Shown: positions 1 through 7,639 of the stretch, piece by piece
How positions within the stretch are numbered: position 1 is the first letter of the stretch
Layout of the letters: every line of letters starts with the position of its first letter
DNA from: a virus
Taxonomy: Duplodnaviria; Heunggongvirae; Uroviricota; Caudoviricetes
DNA: 8,001 nt
Virus record (IMG/VR): IMGVR_UViG_2698536408_000011
Reading direction: 5' to 3' (one strand)
Notes under the pieces: generated by a model
What the model was told of the DNA's origin: nothing
Database searches by the model: none
What the model saw: the letters and a program-made list of their open reading frames with translations, nothing else
Translations under genes and position numbers: made by a program

Positions 1-794
<794 letters not shown>

Positions 795-886: not shown

Positions 887-3067
887 TCATTCTTCCTCTG
901 GATAGCTTGAACTTAAGAGCATATCCTGCGTGAACTGGTCATTAGCTGATTGATTGAAAGTAAAGAAAGATGGTTCATCTGGTCGAACGACAACTTGACC
1001 ACCAAGTGAAACTTTCACTGGCTCCTGAATACGCTTACTCAAAGCACTAATTTCATCCCTCAGACCCTGAATATCTGCACTCGTTAATGCTGAATCTTGC
1101 TTAATGTTGTTTAACTCTGGATGATTGAATCTTGCAATATTCATTGTGGCATTGTTAAACAATTCACCCATTGAACTAAAAATTCTACTCCATCCTTCGT
1201 TAATCATATTCGGTTTATTAGGGTCACCAGAATACACGGGATTAAAGTCACTACCCACACCTACCCCAGACGGATGCATATTAGCGTTTTTGACTACTTC
1301 CTGATTCATAAAATCCAGTGCTTTCTTCAATGCATATAAACCAAGAGTGACGCCTCTGATTTGTGGAATCATTGAAGCTAATGCTAACGCTGTTTCATAA
1401 CCGTCATCAGCATAACCAATTGCAAGAGCACTACCTACACCACCAGCTACACCTTTCAGTTTTCCACCACCTTTACCAGTAGCTACCTGACCAGCCACCT
1501 GATTAGCTCTTGTACCTAACGTTGTGATTGCTCTTGTCAGGTTCATAACCCCTGTAGTAGCACTGAATAGCGTCTTTGCAGATAACGCTATAGCAAGACC
1601 TTTGACGAAGTTGATAAAACCATCACCGACTTCATCAAGTAGTTTTCGTTTAGTGTCATCAAGGCTGTAATAGAACTTCTTAGTCTGTAAAATCCAGCCT
1701 TCAATGGTGTTATTGAATACGCGAATATCATCTACACCAGCTTTAAGCATGTCGATAAGTCCACCGATAGCATCACCAGCGATAGAAGAACTCATCCCCA
1801 TTTCACTAAGCAGGTTACTCAGGCTGGATAAGAAGCCGTTTAGCTCATCCTGTGAACCTGAGAAGATTTTCACCATCGTATCATCCCAATTGTTTGCTAA
1901 CTTACCTAAAGCTGTCTGAGTGCTCTTAGTGACTTCAGCCCAGCCACCCGCTTTATCAATCATCAAGCCCATCTGTTTAGCGACTTTAGGGAGAGTATCA
2001 GCGGAAAGTACCTTCCCGTTTTTCATGGCTGCATCAAGCTCTGTAGCAGTCATACCCAATGCTTCAGCGAATAGCTTAAATGCACCAGCCATACGGTCAC
2101 CTAACTGCCCACGTAATTCCTCAGCCTGAATCTTGCCCTTGCTCGCCATCTGCTCAAATGCTCTCAAAATGCCGTTTAGCTCATCGTTAGAAAGCCCCAT
2201 TAAGCGACTCATAGCCGTTGCATTACCAAATAGCTCCTGTGTCTGTTCCTGTGACATAGAACCCTGAGCACCTGCTGCAAACTTAGCGTAGCTTGATAGC
2301 CCTTCAGAGATATTAAGACCTGTCTTGTCTGCTAAATTTCGAATAAATACCTCAGCTTCAGATGCTTTATCACCAAGTACAAACTTAGCGGCTCTCTGTG
2401 CGGAATCTCGTTTAAGACCTGCATTCATAATGGCCTTGTAAGCGTTAAGAGCACCCATCACAGAGTAAAATGCACCAGATAATTTAATCGCATTGCTTGC
2501 AAGATTATTAAATGCGTCGCTTGTATTGTTAATGCTGGCGGTCTTTGTCTGTGACCTGAGTTTATTCAACGTTTCACGAAGAGATTGATTTAATTTTGCA
2601 AGTTCAGCGTTAAACTTTTCACTTCCAATATTACCAGCCTTACCGCTTAAGCTGTAATACTGTGCTTTAAACATTTTAGCCATCAGCGGATTAATATCAC
2701 CAAGCTTAGACATATTCACGCTATGCGCTGCTGTGATTGCTCTGTTTCCGCTAATTCGTGGTTGCCTTGATTGTTTTGGAGGATTAACAGTGTCATTAAA
2801 TCTGGTGGCAAACTGAAATGCTTTTGTGCTTCTTGCTCTCTGCTCAATCTTGTCAAAGGTCTTATTAAACTTCCTTTCAAGCTGCCCTAAAGAACTTGTC
2901 AGATTGCTGTCAAGTTGCTTGGTATCGACCTTAAACGCTCTATTCAAATTGCGTTCAATTCTTTGTGCTGACTGCAAAGCTGCCTTTTCAACTCTTTGCA
3001 AGCCCTTAATAACGTTTTCACTGAAACTAAGTTCAACGATAAAACTATCAACTGTGAATTTGCTCAT
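887..3067 (-). CDS. Phage tail tape measure protein (726 aa)
   Basis: ATG at 3067..3065 follows AAGAGGTGA with 7-nt spacing. The N-terminal third is alpha-helical and coiled-coil-like. The central region (SRLMGLSNDELNGILRAFEQMASKGKIQAEELRGQLGDRMAGAFKLFAEALGMTATELDAAMKNGKVLSADTLPKV) matches the conserved tape-measure domain pattern (GK-x-x-x-EELR-x-QLG-x-R-x-x-GA). A Gly-rich hydrophobic stretch (GKGGGKLKGVAGGVGSALAIGYA) follows, as in lambda gpH-type proteins. Stop is TGA at 887-889. Confidence 0.85.
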   Translation of the reverse strand: MSKFTVDSFIVELSFSENVIKGLQRVEKAALQSAQRIERNLNRAFKVDTKQLDSNLTSSLGQLERKFNKTFDKIEQRARSTKAFQFATRFNDTVNPPKQSRQPRISGNRAITAAHSVNMSKLGDINPLMAKMFKAQYYSLSGKAGNIGSEKFNAELAKLNQSLRETLNKLRSQTKTASINNTSDAFNNLASNAIKLSGAFYSVMGALNAYKAIMNAGLKRDSAQRAAKFVLGDKASEAEVFIRNLADKTGLNISEGLSSYAKFAAGAQGSMSQEQTQELFGNATAMSRLMGLSNDELNGILRAFEQMASKGKIQAEELRGQLGDRMAGAFKLFAEALGMTATELDAAMKNGKVLSADTLPKVAKQMGLMIDKAGGWAEVTKSTQTALGKLANNWDDTMVKIFSGSQDELNGFLSSLSNLLSEMGMSSSIAGDAIGGLIDMLKAGVDDIRVFNNTIEGWILQTKKFYYSLDDTKRKLLDEVGDGFINFVKGLAIALSAKTLFSATTGVMNLTRAITTLGTRANQVAGQVATGKGGGKLKGVAGGVGSALAIGYADDGYETALALASMIPQIRGVTLGLYALKKALDFMNQEVVKNANMHPSGVGVGSDFNPVYSGDPNKPNMINEGWSRIFSSMGELFNNATMNIARFNHPELNNIKQDSALTSADIQGLRDEISALSKRIQEPVKVSLGGQVVVRPDEPSFFTFNQSANDQFTQDMLLSSSYPEEE

Positions 3068-3099
3068 TCATGTTTCACCTCTTTAAGTGTTCATATACG

Positions 3100-3140
3100 A
3101 AAAAGGGAAAGACTACCGATATCACTCGATAATCTCTCCC
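3100..3140 (-). terminator. Terminator-like hairpin on the minus-strand transcript between the 68-aa gene and the tape measure start
   Basis: Minus-strand RNA reads GGGAGAGA (rc of 3133-3140), a 20-nt loop, UCUUUCCC (rc of 3105-3112), then UUUUU (rc of 3100-3104). The stem is 8 bp with one G-U pair. The loop is long, so stability is uncertain and no folding energy was computed. Confidence 0.3.
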
Positions 3141-3165: not shown

Positions 3166-3372
3166 TTACCTAACCAGATAATAATTACCATCTTCACCAA
3201 CAATCTGACAATCACTTGGTAATTTATCAAGACACCACTTAGCTATTTTCCTGATTCTATTCTTTTGCTTAGAGGAGGTGAATGATTTGATTCGTTTTGG
3301 TTTGTTGGGTTGTTCTTTCAATCGTTCACTAATTGCTTTAATAAGCTCATAGCGTTCTGTTAAATCAATCAT
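3166..3372 (-). CDS. Hypothetical small basic protein (68 aa)
   Basis: ATG at 3372..3370 follows AAGGTGGTGG. It lies 24 bp downstream of the 236-aa gene. The protein is Lys/Arg-rich (MIDLTERYELIKAISERLKEQPNKPKRIKSF...). I recognise no family. Confidence 0.6.
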   Translation of the reverse strand: MIDLTERYELIKAISERLKEQPNKPKRIKSFTSSKQKNRIRKIAKWCLDKLPSDCQIVGEDGNYYLVR

Positions 3373-3396: not shown

Positions 3397-4107
3397 TTAA
3401 ATAGCCTTTGCATATTTGCTAGAAATCTTCGTAAGCTGCTCAATATCAGCCTGCATAGCAATCTTCTTAGCATCTTCATATTCTTTCACAAGCTCTTTCA
3501 TAGCCTGAAGCTCTCTTGAGAGATACAACTTAACATTATCAAGTTGCTTGTTACGTGATGCCAAGATGTTCTGTCTAGCAATTTCAGCGAGTTCTTCATC
3601 GCTCTTATTAGTCATGTAAATAAACTGACCAGCACCTCTTGATGCCTTAACCATCTTCACAATTCGATGTCCAGCAGGAAGACTACTAATCACGGCTGCG
3701 ACGTTTTCTTGAAAAGTACCAAAACCATCATTATCTTCGTATTGGTAATAGACAAATGGTTTCTGTGACAATTCATCCTGAATCTCAAATTCTGACGGCT
3801 CAATAGCTGATTGCATCAAGGTAACTTTGCTGTAAGCGTCATCTAATCTAAGGCGCTGTTCTTTCAGCAGTTGGTAATATTTCTTTTCAAGCTCAAGTAA
3901 TGCTTCACTCTTGCAAATATCAGGCATCTCTTGAGGCTCAGGAGACACAAAGATGGTTGTTTTTGGTGACATCTTTAGCGATTGCTCAAGCTCAATACGC
4001 TTGTCATGCTCTTTACGCTGAATAGTGATAGCTGGATGTTCAGTCTGTGGCGACCAGTCACTGAAGCTATCAATCACTTTGCCATTAATGTAAATATCAT
4101 TTGTCAT
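3397..4107 (-). CDS. Hypothetical protein (236 aa from the internal ATG; coiled-coil-rich, acidic)
   Basis: The ORF track starts at a GTG (4155) with no Shine-Dalgarno. The in-frame ATG at 4107..4105 follows GAAGAGGAAAAGCA (GAGG with 6-7 nt spacing) and is preferred. The protein begins MTNDIYINGKVIDSF.... I recognise no catalytic or nucleotide-binding motif. Confidence 0.6.
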   Translation of the reverse strand: MTNDIYINGKVIDSFSDWSPQTEHPAITIQRKEHDKRIELEQSLKMSPKTTIFVSPEPQEMPDICKSEALLELEKKYYQLLKEQRLRLDDAYSKVTLMQSAIEPSEFEIQDELSQKPFVYYQYEDNDGFGTFQENVAAVISSLPAGHRIVKMVKASRGAGQFIYMTNKSDEELAEIARQNILASRNKQLDNVKLYLSRELQAMKELVKEYEDAKKIAMQADIEQLTKISSKYAKAI

Positions 4108-4282
4108 TGCTTTTCCTCTTCTAAGCGGAAGTGTTTCAGTTTTTAAAAAGCACACCTGACAGCCTATCTAAACTTAGAAGAGACTTAAAAGGCGGTTTGC
4201 CAAGTATGCTTTTTAAAAGCTGAATAGCCCTAGATAATTTCTTATAAAGGGCCATTCATAAGGTGAAGAAATTAAAACATCT

Positions 4283-4304
4283 AAAGGATTCAAAAAGGAT
4301 TCAA
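4283..4304. repeat. Tandem direct repeat, 2 x 11 bp (AAAGGATTCAA), in the long intergenic region
   Basis: Read directly at 4283-4293 and 4294-4304. Confidence 0.6.
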
Positions 4305-4330
4305 ACGAATGAACAAGAGTACTTTTCGAG

Positions 4331-4360
4331 ATGACCTCTCAGACTAACCTGAAAGGTCAT
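4331..4360. repeat. Strong inverted repeat / hairpin: 12-bp arms (11/12 match) ATGACCTCTCAG - ACTAAC - CTGAAAGGTCAT
   Basis: Read directly. There is no adjacent U/T tract on either strand, so it is not a canonical intrinsic terminator; an operator or RNA processing/stability element is more likely. Confidence 0.55.
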
Positions 4361-4427
4361 GTAGCGAAAAGCATTGCACCTTTCAGAATAACTATCATTG
4401 ATGTAGAATGATTAATAGTTTAATTCA

Positions 4428-4444
4428 GGAAGAGTTGCTCTTCC
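4428..4444. repeat. Perfect 7-bp inverted repeat with 3-nt loop (GGAAGAG TTG CTCTTCC), ~60 nt downstream of the micro-ORF stop
   Basis: Read directly. No U-tract follows on either strand. Confidence 0.55.
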
Positions 4445-4505
4445 CTATTACCATCATCTCATGCTTAAGGTTATTTGTCAACAGCTTTTTAACAGATTGG
4501 TAACA

Positions 4506-4583
4506 TCAATTCTTATTTACCGTATTACCTACCCAGCAACCAACAAATAACCCTAAAGTCATCCAGAGAATAACGAGTGTCAT
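4506..4583 (-). CDS. Putative 25-aa hydrophobic micro-protein (MTLVILWMTLGLFVGCWVGNTVNKN), translationally coupled to the 101-aa gene
   Basis: Its ATG (4583..4581) overlaps the TAA stop of the upstream gene as TAATG. It has a single membrane-helix-like hydrophobic stretch. It is too short for the ORF track, and a ribosome-binding site would sit inside the upstream coding sequence. Confidence 0.3.
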   Translation of the reverse strand: MTLVILWMTLGLFVGCWVGNTVNKN

Positions 4584-4888
4584 TACATCACCTCGCTGTA
4601 AGGGTTTAATTCATTCTGATAGGTCAAGAATACATTCAGCTTCAATAATTGCTCAGGGCTTAAATCAAGTCGATTGCACTCTTCAATGATAAAGCGCTTA
4701 TTGTATGGGTCTGTTACTTCCAGCTTGTGAACATAGTCACCAAGTTTAATTTCGTTGATTATATGCTTGTCAATATACGTTGACGCTTCAAAACAATGCA
4801 TGAAATAGATATTAAAGCCCGACCTGTTCAGGTCAATCAACCAATTCATGGTTTCTTGGTCAACCATAATTTGCATTGGGTAATTCAT
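4583..4888 (-). CDS. Hypothetical protein (101 aa)
   Basis: ATG at 4888..4886 follows CAGGAAGGA with 8-nt spacing. The protein begins MNYPMQIMVDQETMNWLIDLNRSGF.... I recognise no family. Confidence 0.6.
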   Translation of the reverse strand: MNYPMQIMVDQETMNWLIDLNRSGFNIYFMHCFEASTYIDKHIINEIKLGDYVHKLEVTDPYNKRFIIEECNRLDLSPEQLLKLNVFLTYQNELNPYSEVM

Positions 4889-5034
4889 TTTTAAAATCCT
4901 TCCTGTATCGCATTCTAAGACGTTTTAACCCCTTTTTTAGACCACTTAAGGCGATTCCCTAAGTTACCCTGATTAGGGGCTTAAAAACGTTTCTGGTGCG
5001 TCTGGTAAAGCCTGAGAGATATGTTTTGCTGTTT

Positions 5035-6084: not shown

Positions 6085-6381
6085 TTACCGGCACTTTCCC
6101 TTGATAATATTGGTGGCCCTCAGATTACCGGGGTCACCGTCTTTTAATCGTAGCTGGTGGACTGAATCCCATAAATCGTAATGATACAGCACCGCAAACT
6201 TCAAAGCGTCAATCTTTAAATCTGTCACATCATCGACGAAATAATAATCCCTCCCTTCTTTCTTCGGTCGAATCCGGTAAACTTCCCCGTGAGTATCTTT
6301 CATCAAGTAACCTTCACGAGAAATGCTGTAACGTCTGAGTAAATAGTCACGGTATTTTCTCTCGCCATTATAAGTTTTCAT
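6085..6381 (-). CDS. Hypothetical protein (98 aa), translationally coupled to the replication initiator gene
   Basis: The ATG at 6381..6379 overlaps the TAA stop of the upstream gene as TAATG and follows GGAGGAATG. The protein begins MKTYNGERKYRDYLLRRYSISREGY.... No family recognised. It sits where a helicase loader would be in lambdoid phages but is far too small. Confidence 0.6.
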   Translation of the reverse strand: MKTYNGERKYRDYLLRRYSISREGYLMKDTHGEVYRIRPKKEGRDYYFVDDVTDLKIDALKFAVLYHYDLWDSVHQLRLKDGDPGNLRATNIIKGKCR

Positions 6382-7334
6382 TAAAACATTCCTCCACCAT
6401 AAACACGTCTGACTTTAACTTTTTCTTTCTTTGGCTCGGTGTGAGTTTTCTTTTTTGGTGTAAAAGTAAAATCATCGTCACTATCATCAAAGTCATCGAG
6501 GTCACTAACCTTGTTCTTTAGCTTCGCATTTCTGAATCTTTCTTTAATTTCTGCTTTACGCTGTTCACGTTTCAATTCCTCTTCAGGGTCTTCTTCATCA
6601 TCAAGGTCAACATCCGGTAATTCATCATCAGTGGCGGGGCACTGTGTGTTTTTATGGTCACTACTAGCAATCACATCAGAGATTTTATCTTCCTTTTTAA
6701 CGACCTCTTTAGCAGCTTCACTATCAAGGTCATCTAAGTCAGATGTTTTAACAGTCTCTTTAATAGCCTCTTCAATACCAAGAGAATCACATTCATGTGA
6801 ATCACAGAGCGAAGCTCCCTTCTTAAAATATTCTTCTTCAAAGTCATCTTCTTTATTGTTATTAATAAGTTCTTTCTTGTTATTACTGTTATTATACGTG
6901 TCAAAGATTTTGACTGACTGAGTAAAAAATTTTGACTCAGTGGGTAAAGAATTTTGACTCAGTGGGTCATCTTTCTTGACTGACTGAGTAACTTTAGACT
7001 CCAGCTTTGCCTTTCTGGCTTCCTTAGCTGTAAGCTCTGTTAAAACCTCCGGTACTTCATCAAGTGAATAAACTTTAATAACACACTGATTGCTTGCAAC
7101 GTTAGTTTTCTTGATTAAACCATGTGCCTCAAGTTGTTTCATACATGCAATCACGGATGTTCTTGTGATTCCAGCATACTGACCAAGATGAGCATATGAA
7201 GGGGTATAATATTGCCCCTTATCGTGATAAAACTTTTGTTCATTCAACATGACAGTGTAAATAATACGGTCGGCAGCTTTAACGCCATTAGTCATCTGAT
7301 AAATACGGTCATCAAACATGTGGAATTTTTCCAT
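6381..7334 (-). CDS. Phage replication initiator / replisome organiser (lambda O-like; 317 aa from the internal ATG) with the origin embedded in its coding sequence
   Basis: The ATG at 7334..7332 follows AAAAAGGAAAATATA; the ORF track start is an upstream TTG at 7391. The N-terminal ~100 aa (MEKFHMFDDRIYQMTNGVKAADRIIYTVMLNEQ...GITRTSVIACMKQLEAHGLIKK) has the winged-helix pattern of phage replication initiator N-domains. Mid-gene iterons and an AT-rich tract follow, then a long acidic low-complexity C-terminal domain (DLDD/DVDLDDEED repeats). Confidence 0.7.
   Translation of the reverse strand: MEKFHMFDDRIYQMTNGVKAADRIIYTVMLNEQKFYHDKGQYYTPSYAHLGQYAGITRTSVIACMKQLEAHGLIKKTNVASNQCVIKVYSLDEVPEVLTELTAKEARKAKLESKVTQSVKKDDPLSQNSLPTESKFFTQSVKIFDTYNNSNNKKELINNNKEDDFEEEYFKKGASLCDSHECDSLGIEEAIKETVKTSDLDDLDSEAAKEVVKKEDKISDVIASSDHKNTQCPATDDELPDVDLDDEEDPEEELKREQRKAEIKERFRNAKLKNKVSDLDDFDDSDDDFTFTPKKKTHTEPKKEKVKVRRVYGGGMF
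6841..6992. other. Putative phage origin of replication (iterons plus adjacent AT-rich unwinding tract) inside the initiator gene
   Basis: The iterons at 6908-6992 are followed, in the direction of gene transcription, by a ~75% AT tract at 6841-6907 (ttctttattgttattaataagttctttcttgttattactgttattatacg). This matches the lambda ori arrangement within gene O. Confidence 0.6.
6908..6992. repeat. Four direct iterons with ~22-bp periodicity, each starting TTGACT
   Basis: TTGACTGACTGAGTAA is identical at 6911-6926 and 6976-6991. ATTTTGACTCAGTGGGT is identical at 6929-6945 and 6951-6967. TTGACT cores sit at 6911, 6933, 6955 and 6976. Confidence 0.75.
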
Positions 7335-7425
7335 TATATTTTCCTTTTTAAAAATAAAACAAAGAAAGGGCTGACCACGTATAGTGACCAACCCCAGAGG
7401 GAGTGAATTAATTAGAAGATGGACT

Positions 7426-7570
7426 GATAAAGGAACTCAGAAGCCTGAGCGATTACGCGAGTATTAACAGCAAAAGGAAAAGCCTTGATTGAATAAGAGG
7501 CCGTGAAAATCTGTCAATACCCTGACGCCTCCCAACGTTGTAACCTCTTAATGTTCTGAGTTCTTTTATC
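7426..7570. repeat. 17-bp inverted repeat pair (16/17 match: GATAAAGGAACTCAGAA / TTCTGAGTTCTTTTATC) flanking a 111-bp segment
   Basis: Read directly: 7426-7442 against the reverse complement of 7554-7570. The enclosed segment contains a consensus TTGACA hexamer (rc of 7512-7517) pointing toward the replication gene, with only weak -10 candidates. Confidence 0.6.
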
Positions 7571-7639
7571 ACCCCATATAAAAACCATAACAGATGTGAT
7601 TATAAATTGCAACAATTATTTCACAGAATAATTACTGAT

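Follow-up and report, generated by a model that had tools for sequence, protein, structure and literature searches.

Fold-back inhibition is known for the IS10/Tn10 transposase mRNA transcribed from outside promoters and for the hok and tisB type I toxin mRNAs, and such systems protect a potentially harmful gene from read-through. RNase III-processed leaders, including the lambda N leader and the early processing sites of T7, form another group, in which cleavage alters translation. The immunity leader of the satellite phage P4 works through the CI RNA, seqA, seqB and seqC and premature termination, and is related to the Rfam C4 antisense RNA; a further satellite, the Vibrio cholerae PLE, depends on the virulent myophage ICP1. 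Here, we analysed an 8,001-nt stretch of viral DNA (Caudoviricetes; IMG/VR record IMGVR_UViG_2698536408_000011), referred to as the window, and in particular the minus strand of its non-coding gap at 4108–4505. On balance, this gap is probably a promoter followed by a cis-regulatory 5′ leader that silences a tail-module operon, consisting of the 236-amino-acid (aa), 68-aa, tape-measure and baseplate-like genes, through attenuation and fold-back masking of the ribosome-binding site.

Every credible gene of the window was on the minus strand, with the gap lying directly 5′ of the 236-aa gene:

4108–4505: non-coding gap of 398 bp, without open reading frames (ORFs) save chance ORFs of up to 39 aa
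3397–4107, minus strand: 236-aa gene, the first gene under the leader, with its start codon set by alignment with homologues

A preliminary description made from the letters of the window had singled out this gap as the longest non-coding stretch, rich in hairpins and separating the replication/ORFan genes from the 236-aa/68-aa/tape-measure block, and had suggested that it holds a small RNA or a regulatory hub. Each of the features that it listed was recovered at the coordinates given. The gap is indeed the longest such stretch and separates these modules as functional non-coding sequence, and its hairpins were kept in related elements with compensatory changes; as they covary as RNA on the gene-sense strand, a small RNA or regulatory hub was the right class of explanation. 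Its other suggestion, a recombination junction inside the region, was not supported, since homology in BLAST comparisons broke only at the two edges (~4553–4565 and 4112). The minus-strand RNA (4447–4095) folded at −112.9 kcal/mol (z = −6.9; none of 100 shuffles folded as well), and the plus strand at −95.5 kcal/mol (z = −5.0), 17 kcal/mol worse because several stem positions are G-U. The sense RNA of one relative (L030) reached z = −8.9.

For comparison, 77 metagenome, 2 genome, 20 viral-contig and 4 annotated Escherichia coli regions were collected; a locus was included when a homologous gene or the RNA motif was present, and the region upstream was taken from each. The promoter and the first terminator of the relatives (T1) were evaluated in 83 unique leaders, the long hairpin H5 and its anti-Shine-Dalgarno (anti-SD) segment in 62, and a tandem duplication in 67 relatives. 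The relatives are closely related and mosaic, and the compensatory ‘events’ are therefore fewer than the counted cells, especially for H5. Pairs were counted in covariance-model alignments fitted to the proposed structures; RNAalifold on a MAFFT alignment misaligned the variants of hairpin H3.

Conservation of the gap was uneven, and parts of it exceeded the flanking genes in this respect. Positions 4505–4453 were near-invariant (mean identity to the window, 0.94), followed by the Ha–H3 stretch at 4386–4317 (0.81), and the ORF upstream of the 25-aa gene that precedes the gap showed a mean identity of only 0.36 with 35% gaps. Compared across about 90 related loci, the minus-strand leader elements together formed one conserved cassette. 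In six viral-contig loci, this cassette, retained from the 25-aa ORF through the Shine-Dalgarno (SD) region, kept ~80–84% nt identity where the downstream protein was only 26% identical, and a seventh locus had the same arrangement by sequence inspection. As homology stops at ~4553–4565 and at 4112, the cassette is, judged by these comparisons, a conserved linker between exchangeable gene modules and not a junction scar. A search for similarity to phage DNA returned no match for 3397–4900 and only chance matches (E ≥ 3) for 4290–4510.

Three elements at the 3′ end of the leader would together mask the ribosome-binding site:

4135–4224, minus strand: H5, a long hairpin with 21 uninterrupted pairs (4218–4198 with 4161–4141) and 5 outer pairs
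4172–4183, minus strand: anti-SD segment UCUCUUCUAAGU in the apical region of H5, complementary over 12 nt to GCUUAGAAGAGG at 4126–4115
4105–4126, minus strand: translation-initiation region of the 236-aa gene (GCUUAGAAGAGG at 4126–4115), with the SD core GAGGA at 4118–4114 and the AUG at 4107–4105

What had been described as two copies of a TTTTAAAAGC motif is present, but the copies are not separate motifs; they belong to the arms (4135–4161 and 4198–4224) of a 27-nt inverted repeat, that is, of one hairpin. H5 comprises 26 RNA pairs in total and an apical region of 36 nt. Its uninterrupted stem measured 15–29 bp in all 62 unique leaders (at least 21 bp in all but one), and 99.9% of cells were paired in the alignment to model R2 (61 unique sequences), compared with 78% in shuffles (at most 79.7%). 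Sixteen of the 21 pairs differed on both sides between alleles, which identifies H5 as a conserved structure. Complementarity between the anti-SD segment and the SD region extended over 9–13 nt in 62/62 unique leaders (at least 10 nt in all but two), a level matched by 0–7% of loop shuffles. Moreover, three anti-SD/SD allele pairs co-varied (CUCUUCUAAG/CUUAGAAGAG, UCUUCUAAGUGU/ACACUUAGAGGA and UUCACCUC/GAGGUGAA), so that complementarity was kept as the sequences changed, in the manner of an SD-sequestering operator. These results provide strong comparative evidence that a loop-to-SD interaction would mask the ribosome-binding site. In length, H5 also corresponds to a substrate of RNase III (uninterrupted double-stranded RNA of at least ~20 bp), and it may be cleaved accordingly.

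At the other end of the gap, a promoter and the predicted RNA start were located, followed by two hairpins:

4482–4505, minus strand: block upstream of the −35 element (TGTTACCAATCTGTTAAAAAGCTG), near-invariant in the conservation profile
4453–4481, minus strand: sigma-70-type promoter with TTGACA (4481–4476), a 17-nt spacer, TG (4461–4460) and GATGAT (4458–4453)
4427–4445, minus strand: hairpin H1 (GGGAAGAG-CAA-CUCUUCCU) at the predicted RNA 5′ end
4390–4420, minus strand: H2, an imperfect hairpin in a variable cassette, from the fold and the list of variants

The window promoter has −35 and −10 hexamers within the sigma-70 spacing range of 16–18 nt, with A and T at the second and sixth −10 positions, and scored 10/12 against the consensus, with the TG of an extended −10 element; that of relative L003 scored 11/12 (CATAAT), and the distant relative L051 carries TTGACA-16-TAGCAT with TG in the same place (10/12). 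The −35 element was invariant among the 83 unique leaders, and most of them had CATAAT as the −10 element, in comparison with which the GATGAT of the window is weaker. A scan of the window, L003 and L030 detected no other sense-strand sigma-70-like site in the interval from the early genes to the 236-aa gene; L051 has an extra weak site (9/12) overlapping the start codon. The block at 4482–4505 could be an UP-like element or an operator. Transcription is predicted to start at ~4447–4445, just 5′ of H1. The perfect 7-bp hairpin reported earlier at 4428–4444 was recovered on the minus strand as GGAAGAG-CAA-CUCUUCC, with a further G-U pair at 4445/4427, and all 19 arm variants found in relatives keep 5–11 pairs, many via G-U, while their purine/pyrimidine arms vary.

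In relatives, at least three different cassettes take the place of H2, among them (GGAT)n runs and inserted additional hairpins. Tetranucleotide runs, (GGAT)2–5 and (TCAT)n, varied in copy number at the equivalents of ~4400 and ~4310 (for example in L005, L044 and L047), and several leader indels each consisted of one complete hairpin (GGATAGTCTTCTATCC; GGTATGTTCTATACC) between ATTCTGA repeats.

The central part of the leader contains two adjoining hairpins:

4366–4384, minus strand: Ha, a small near-invariant hairpin, GAAAGGU-GCAAU-GCUUUUC
4331–4360, minus strand: H3, a 12-bp hairpin (AUGACCUUUCAG-GUUAGU-CUGAGAGGUCAU) with a covarying stem

The hairpin reported at 4331–4360 is real, with 12-nt arms and a 6-nt loop, and its apparent mismatch is a U-G wobble on the minus strand, giving an RNA stem of 12 pairs. 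A covariance model of Ha/H3, built from 14 sequences, detected a single sense-strand copy at every one of 82 loci, L051 included. In the resulting alignment (A5; 44 distinct sequences), 99.4% of Ha and H3 cells were paired (99% for H3), compared with 40–53% in slid controls, and none of 500 shuffles reached the observed values. Six pairs were doubly changed, all of them in H3 (6/12 H3 pairs), so that compensatory changes went beyond both shuffled and slid controls, in an alignment fitted to the model. In Ha, five of the seven pairs never varied and two changed on one side only, always remaining paired; the 24 arm variants of H3 formed 10–13 pairs each, and its loop was not conserved (GUUAGU, UUUAGU, CCCACA, UAUAACC and others). 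G-U pairs accounted for 20% of the total, and the opposite strand would pair at 79.2% of cells; the retention of G-U pairs and the poor pairing of the opposite strand therefore indicate selection on sense-strand RNA, not on DNA palindromes.

The 3′ strand of Ha (GCUUUUCG) can pair instead with the base of H3 at ~4328–4320 (CGAAAAGUA; CGAAAAGU at 4327–4320). As GCUUUUCG is common to Ha and to the extended H3, the two folds are mutually exclusive, and natural variants (CUCGAAAAG versus CUCAAAAAG) shifted the predicted minimum-energy fold between them. The exact 18-mer AAGGTGCAATGCTTTTCG occurred among viral contigs only in this island family. Three other readings of this part were rejected. The repeats A (CTGAAAGGT, 4386–4378), B (ACCTTTCAG, 4357–4349) and C (CTGAGAGGT, 4342–4334) of the window might form alternative A:B and B:C hairpins as an attenuator or a P4-like seqA/B/C set, but A is interrupted in relatives (CTGAGTTGGAAAGGT), and B changes in step with C alone. 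A pairing between the Ha core and the 236-aa start region was dismissed because the sequence of that region is not conserved in relatives, and a small protein from the AUG inside Ha (MLF...) was dismissed because its ORF ranges from 5 to 58 aa with neither frame nor stop position conserved.

Between H3 and H5 lies the stretch that holds terminators in most relatives:

4283–4304, minus strand: tandem duplication of UUGAAUCCUUU, a conserved single-copy motif whose second copy is private to the window
4221–4258, minus strand: H4, an 11+4-bp hairpin (UGAAUGGCCCU...AGGGCUAUUCA) at the position of the third terminator (T3) of relatives

No intrinsic terminator was detected by a scan of 4108–4505 on either strand. 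The absence of U-tracts noted in the preliminary description thus applies to all window hairpins, while its conclusion that these are not ordinary terminators fails for the relatives. There, T1 consists of GCCCTAATCATGAGTTAGGGC and TTTCTTT (GCCCUAAUCAUGAGUUAGGGC followed by UUUCUUU in the RNA) and is carried by an insertion at ~4277, usually together with T2, a second A+U-rich hairpin followed by U5; this T1/T2 site is empty in the window. T1 was present in at least 53 of the 83 unique leaders (at least 64%, by a regular-expression count) and absent from ~24 (~29%), the window among the latter, and its end lay 183–354 nt from the predicted start (median, ~198 nt). L051 has its own version of T1, GCCCUCUUGAAUGAGGGCG followed by UUUUUU, and T3 (AAAGCCCU..AGGGCUUUU(U/C) variants) precedes H5 in most relatives. 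Intrinsic-terminator features were accordingly found in the T1 of L030 and L051 and in T3 variants. H4 is followed by GCUUUU without a U-run, and its stem is longer than that of T3. The T3 loop was inverted in L015 and one other relative (GCCCTAAACATAATCTGTGAAGGGC versus GCCCTTCACAGATTATGTTTAGGGC), suggesting inversion between the stem arms. The exact 11-bp tandem duplication described earlier is present, but as a private slippage event and not as a conserved element: the duplicated columns were >90% gaps, with one copy in >90% of the 67 relatives, and iterons or a binding array were rejected on the same ground.

Taken together, these elements are consistent with the following mechanism. The near-consensus sigma-70 promoter at 4481–4453 would start an RNA at ~4447, with H1 as a stabilising hairpin at its 5′ end. 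The next part would be a two-state element, in which GCUUUUCG pairs either upstream (Ha, 4384–4366) or downstream (extending H3, 4360–4331). The RNA would then reach the terminator position, with two or three intrinsic terminators in most relatives and only the U-tract-less H4 (4258–4221) in the window, and would close with H5 (4224–4135), whose loop (4183–4172) would pair with the SD region (4126–4115) of the 236-aa gene. The operon would thus be held off at two levels, by attenuation in relatives and by fold-back translational masking in all copies, and the masking would cover read-through transcripts both from the leader promoter and from the early genes. Activation presumably follows infection by a Felixounavirus-like helper phage, and could act at Ha/H3 (antitermination or refolding), at H5 (cleavage or unwinding that frees the SD), or at both.

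Several points weigh against this reading. Promoter activity, start site, termination, the effect on translation, the activating signal and the helper-phage link are all predicted. A stand-alone small-RNA gene would equally show such a layout, with terminators behind a strong promoter of constitutive appearance, and the analysis identified neither an antitermination factor nor an alternative anti-terminator pairing nor a promoter motif of a helper phage. The covariation of H5 comes from two or three allele classes, that is, from few independent events in structure-fitted alignments, and minimum-free-energy folds did not always include the loop–SD pairing, because the apical region of H5 can fold on itself. 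In the window allele, T1 and T2 are absent and the baseplate-like gene is a pseudogene, and the system may be inactive here; with its weaker −10 element and decayed island, this copy may have lost the regulation of its relatives.

Less probably, the main product is instead a discrete trans-acting small RNA of ~180–350 nt (median, ~200 nt), running from the promoter to T1 with H1, Ha and H3, which would regulate mRNAs of the island, the host or a helper phage, or act as an immunity factor made of RNA, with T2, T3 and H5 merely insulating the tail genes from its promoter. The near-consensus promoter, the hairpin at the 5′ terminus, the invariant 20-nt core with the conserved single-stranded UUGAAUCCUUUA, and the canonical U-tract terminator 183–354 nt downstream in 53 unique leaders and L051 all fit such a gene, and up to three consecutive terminators plus SD masking resemble insulation more than tuning. 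However, searches turned up no target: a scan for duplexes with the remainder of the window performed no better than shuffles and gave no sign of complementarity to two or more other transcript sites, as P4-type immunity would imply. Nor was any conserved complement of the invariant cores present elsewhere in five islands (for the Ha core, none of 9 nt or more; for the promoter-block core, the only 9-mer match fell in the 3′ arm of H5 in the leader itself). In a Felixounavirus genome, the longest stretch of complementarity was 14 nt, lay in the variable cassette and was matched by 3 of 30 shuffles; this perfect complement, between window 4393–4406 and Escherichia phage garuso 66910–66923 in the terminase gene, is probably due to chance, other cassette alleles giving only 11–12 nt. 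In addition, ~29% of leaders, the window included, are without T1/T2, which would leave the RNA there without a defined 3′ end. No Rfam family matched either: the best scores for the window and two relatives were 20–34 bits, from generic hairpin matches to microRNA or small nucleolar RNA models, against gathering thresholds of 39–139 bits (C4/P4 CI RNA and enterobacterial small RNAs included). A cis-acting leader and a small RNA are compatible and do not exclude each other.

That the hairpins are the 3′ untranslated region of the early operon, acting as terminators and stabilising stem-loops next to an incidental promoter-like site, is very unlikely. The region does begin directly after the last early ORF, H1 is followed in several alleles by a U-rich run that scored as terminator-like, and T1–T3 are canonical terminators in relatives. 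Such a region would nevertheless have no use for Ha/H3 or for allele-matched anti-SD/SD pairing, the −35 element, spacer length, TG and −10 element are kept as a unit even in L051, and no window hairpin has a U-tract. We regard as extremely unlikely a role at the DNA level, as a replication origin, packaging site, recombination site or set of operators at the inverted repeats. The near-invariance of 4458–4505 even at promoter spacer positions, the resemblance of inverted repeats to protein-binding sites and the location of the cassette between homology breakpoints would suit it, but the stems are kept through G-U pairs, which would mispair as A-C on the opposite strand or within a cruciform (99.4% versus 79.2% paired), and arm sequences are freely replaced provided that pairing holds. 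The tandem repeat here occurs only in the window, the similarity to Felixounavirus DNA that a common packaging signal would call for is not seen, and the only conserved iterons (22 bp × 3.3) are elsewhere, at 6903–6981 inside the replication-initiator gene; it is this location, together with the G-U evidence, that makes DNA-level functions unlikely. A replication origin in the gap was also rejected directly, as 4108–4505 contains no conserved direct repeats. The cis-regulatory leader thus stays our preferred reading, and each of its parts is directly testable by mutation because natural compensatory variants exist.

The remaining genes of the window, listed in the order of transcription, are as follows:

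6381–7391, minus strand: gene for a replication-initiator-like protein, with PHROG replication-initiation matches
Between the replication initiator and the 25-aa ORF, minus strand: five small ORFans
4506–4583, minus strand: 25-aa hydrophobic ORF (MTLVILWMTLGLFVGCWVGNTVNKN) from the ORF list, the last early gene
3166–3372, minus strand: 68-aa gene, next after the 236-aa gene
887–3067, minus strand: tape-measure gene (726 aa), matching Pfam TMP_3 and PHROG tape-measure families
~37–730, minus strand: baseplate-like pseudogene, the last of the tail block

The 25-aa ORF overlaps the stop of the gene before it, and its own stop codon adjoins the conserved promoter block. Its peptide was kept at loci with differing neighbour genes (mean identity to the window, 0.71), and could be a small membrane peptide or toxin-like. 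The 236-aa protein, 100% identical to a Shigella sonnei protein, had no match in Pfam, PHROGs, NCBIfam, PADLOC or PDB sequence searches, which leaves the name ‘transposase’ that RefSeq gives it in many genomes unsupported. An AlphaFold2 model of it, mainly of long helices (predicted local distance difference test score, 66), was too weak for an informative fold search. The 68-aa protein and the small ORFs had no match in Pfam, PHROGs, NCBIfam or PADLOC, and neither the 236-aa nor the 68-aa protein was similar to Felixounavirus tape-measure chaperones. Three further repeats were observed in the window. A 22-bp tandem repeat (~3.3 copies, 6903–6981) inside the replication-initiator gene probably forms the origin iterons of the island, comparable to those in lambda O. 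An imperfect inverted repeat of 38 nt (7419–7577; 76% complementary, 83 nt apart), which is non-coding and upstream of the same gene, may be an early regulatory region. A ~47-nt intergenic sequence between the baseplate-like and tape-measure genes (806–852) recurs in L099 (3138–3182) between the tape-measure and 68-aa genes, where the window has 3091–3140, and may be a repeated intergenic element.

The leader belongs to an island of ~11 kb in E. coli chromosomes. Its insertion sites are yecE and the interval between tonB and yciI; a large serine recombinase borders it at one end, and a Dam-type methyltransferase with a small serine recombinase at the other. Its gene content, taken from the window together with L002, L003, L004 and L084, comprises recombinases, baseplate-like and tape-measure proteins, ORFans, a replication initiator and a methyltransferase, and no capsid or terminase genes. 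A probe of the gap and its flanks (window 4050–4600) matched 478 of 5,426 complete E. coli genomes (~9%) at 72–91% identity, and the family extends to Shigella, Salmonella, E. albertii and E. marmotae. The window copy is from S. sonnei and partly decayed: its baseplate-like gene has frame changes, lacks residues 50–74 and is cut at the 3′ end at ~37, where the end of an insertion sequence matches S. sonnei plasmids. The tape-measure and baseplate-like genes are mosaic relatives of Felixounavirus genes. In the intact relative L002, the baseplate-like protein was 75% identical to gp119 of Felixounavirus garuso, and the baseplate-like region at 271–706 had up to 92% nt identity to many Felixounavirus phages. 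The first ~45 residues and residues 240–420 of the tape-measure protein were much closer to Felixounavirus than the remainder, a mosaic similarity that suggests retained contacts with the tail-assembly partners of a helper. An integrase and a replication module, the absence of most virion genes and sequence ties to a potential helper phage make up the gene content of a phage satellite. From this content, the island looks like a satellite-like or defence element tied to Felix-O1-type phages; it fits no known class in family scans and literature searches, and the latter returned no description of it.

A more far-reaching proposal, which we consider speculative and unlikely, is that Ha/H3 is a new riboregulator by which PLE-like satellites of virulent Felix-O1-type phages sense their helper. 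The fold switch would let RNA polymerase pass up to three terminators and, with the opening of the anti-SD hairpin, would turn on tape-measure and baseplate proteins that hijack or sabotage tail assembly of the helper, while the T1-ended leader RNA would double as an immunity factor when the island is integrated. If the proposed silencing is true, the leader is a compact and sharply defined case of multi-layer gene silencing in a mobile element, layered from the promoter, the two-state RNA element, the series of terminators and the fold-back of the loop on the SD, and the Ha/H3 and H5 motifs would be candidates for new RNA families. The leader would mark the control point of an island family present in ~9% of complete E. 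coli genomes, whose tail genes are exchanged with Felix-O1-type phages used in typing and phage therapy, and the way in which these genes are switched on would reveal whether the island acts as a satellite, as a defence element or as both.

Compared with the known systems, the leader shares with IS10, hok and tisB complementarity between the ribosome-binding site and a segment further upstream in one and the same RNA, which would leave the transcripts translationally silent; unlike in those systems, the anti-SD sequence lies in the apical loop of a 21–29-bp hairpin, giving a pseudoknot-like geometry, and no antisense RNA partner or internal promoter was found. As in the lambda N leader and the T7 sites, about two helical turns of uninterrupted double-stranded RNA stand just 5′ of a gene with an occluded initiation region, although processing is known for those leaders and H5 is a candidate substrate from its pairing potential. 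The order of promoter, non-coding RNA, intrinsic terminator and protein gene recalls type III toxin–antitoxin systems (ToxIN), which differ in having a conserved tandem-repeat RNA (the sole tandem repeat here is private to the window) and a ToxN/AbiEii-type toxin, for which the 236-aa protein gave no PADLOC match. A promoter-proximal conserved sequence followed by a hairpin upstream of terminators is also reminiscent of lambda nut (boxA and boxB) and HK022 put. This likeness is a resemblance only: UGCUUUUCG is loosely boxA-like by eye, the variable H3 loop argues against boxB-like recognition because the boxB loop is the recognition element, and no N-like protein was identified in the family scans, to which the search was confined.

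With P4, the locus differs in that it has no Rfam match and no conserved complement elsewhere to the RNA core, and in that the A/B/C-like repeats of the window (CTGAAAGGT/ACCTTTCAG/CTGAGAGGT) are not kept in relatives. Both are, however, mobile elements that depend on another phage (for the island, presumably), in which a constitutive-type promoter, a structured leader and terminators precede an operon that would be silent when the element is integrated. The host island, in turn, differs from PLE in its host genus, in its own tape-measure and baseplate-like genes and in that no shared proteins were found, and its satellite biology is suggested by gene content. The general plan of the island resembles that of PLE: it is small, combines a large serine recombinase with an iteron-bearing replication initiator and unidirectional ORFans, has no capsid or terminase genes, and shows sequence ties to a group of virulent myophages.

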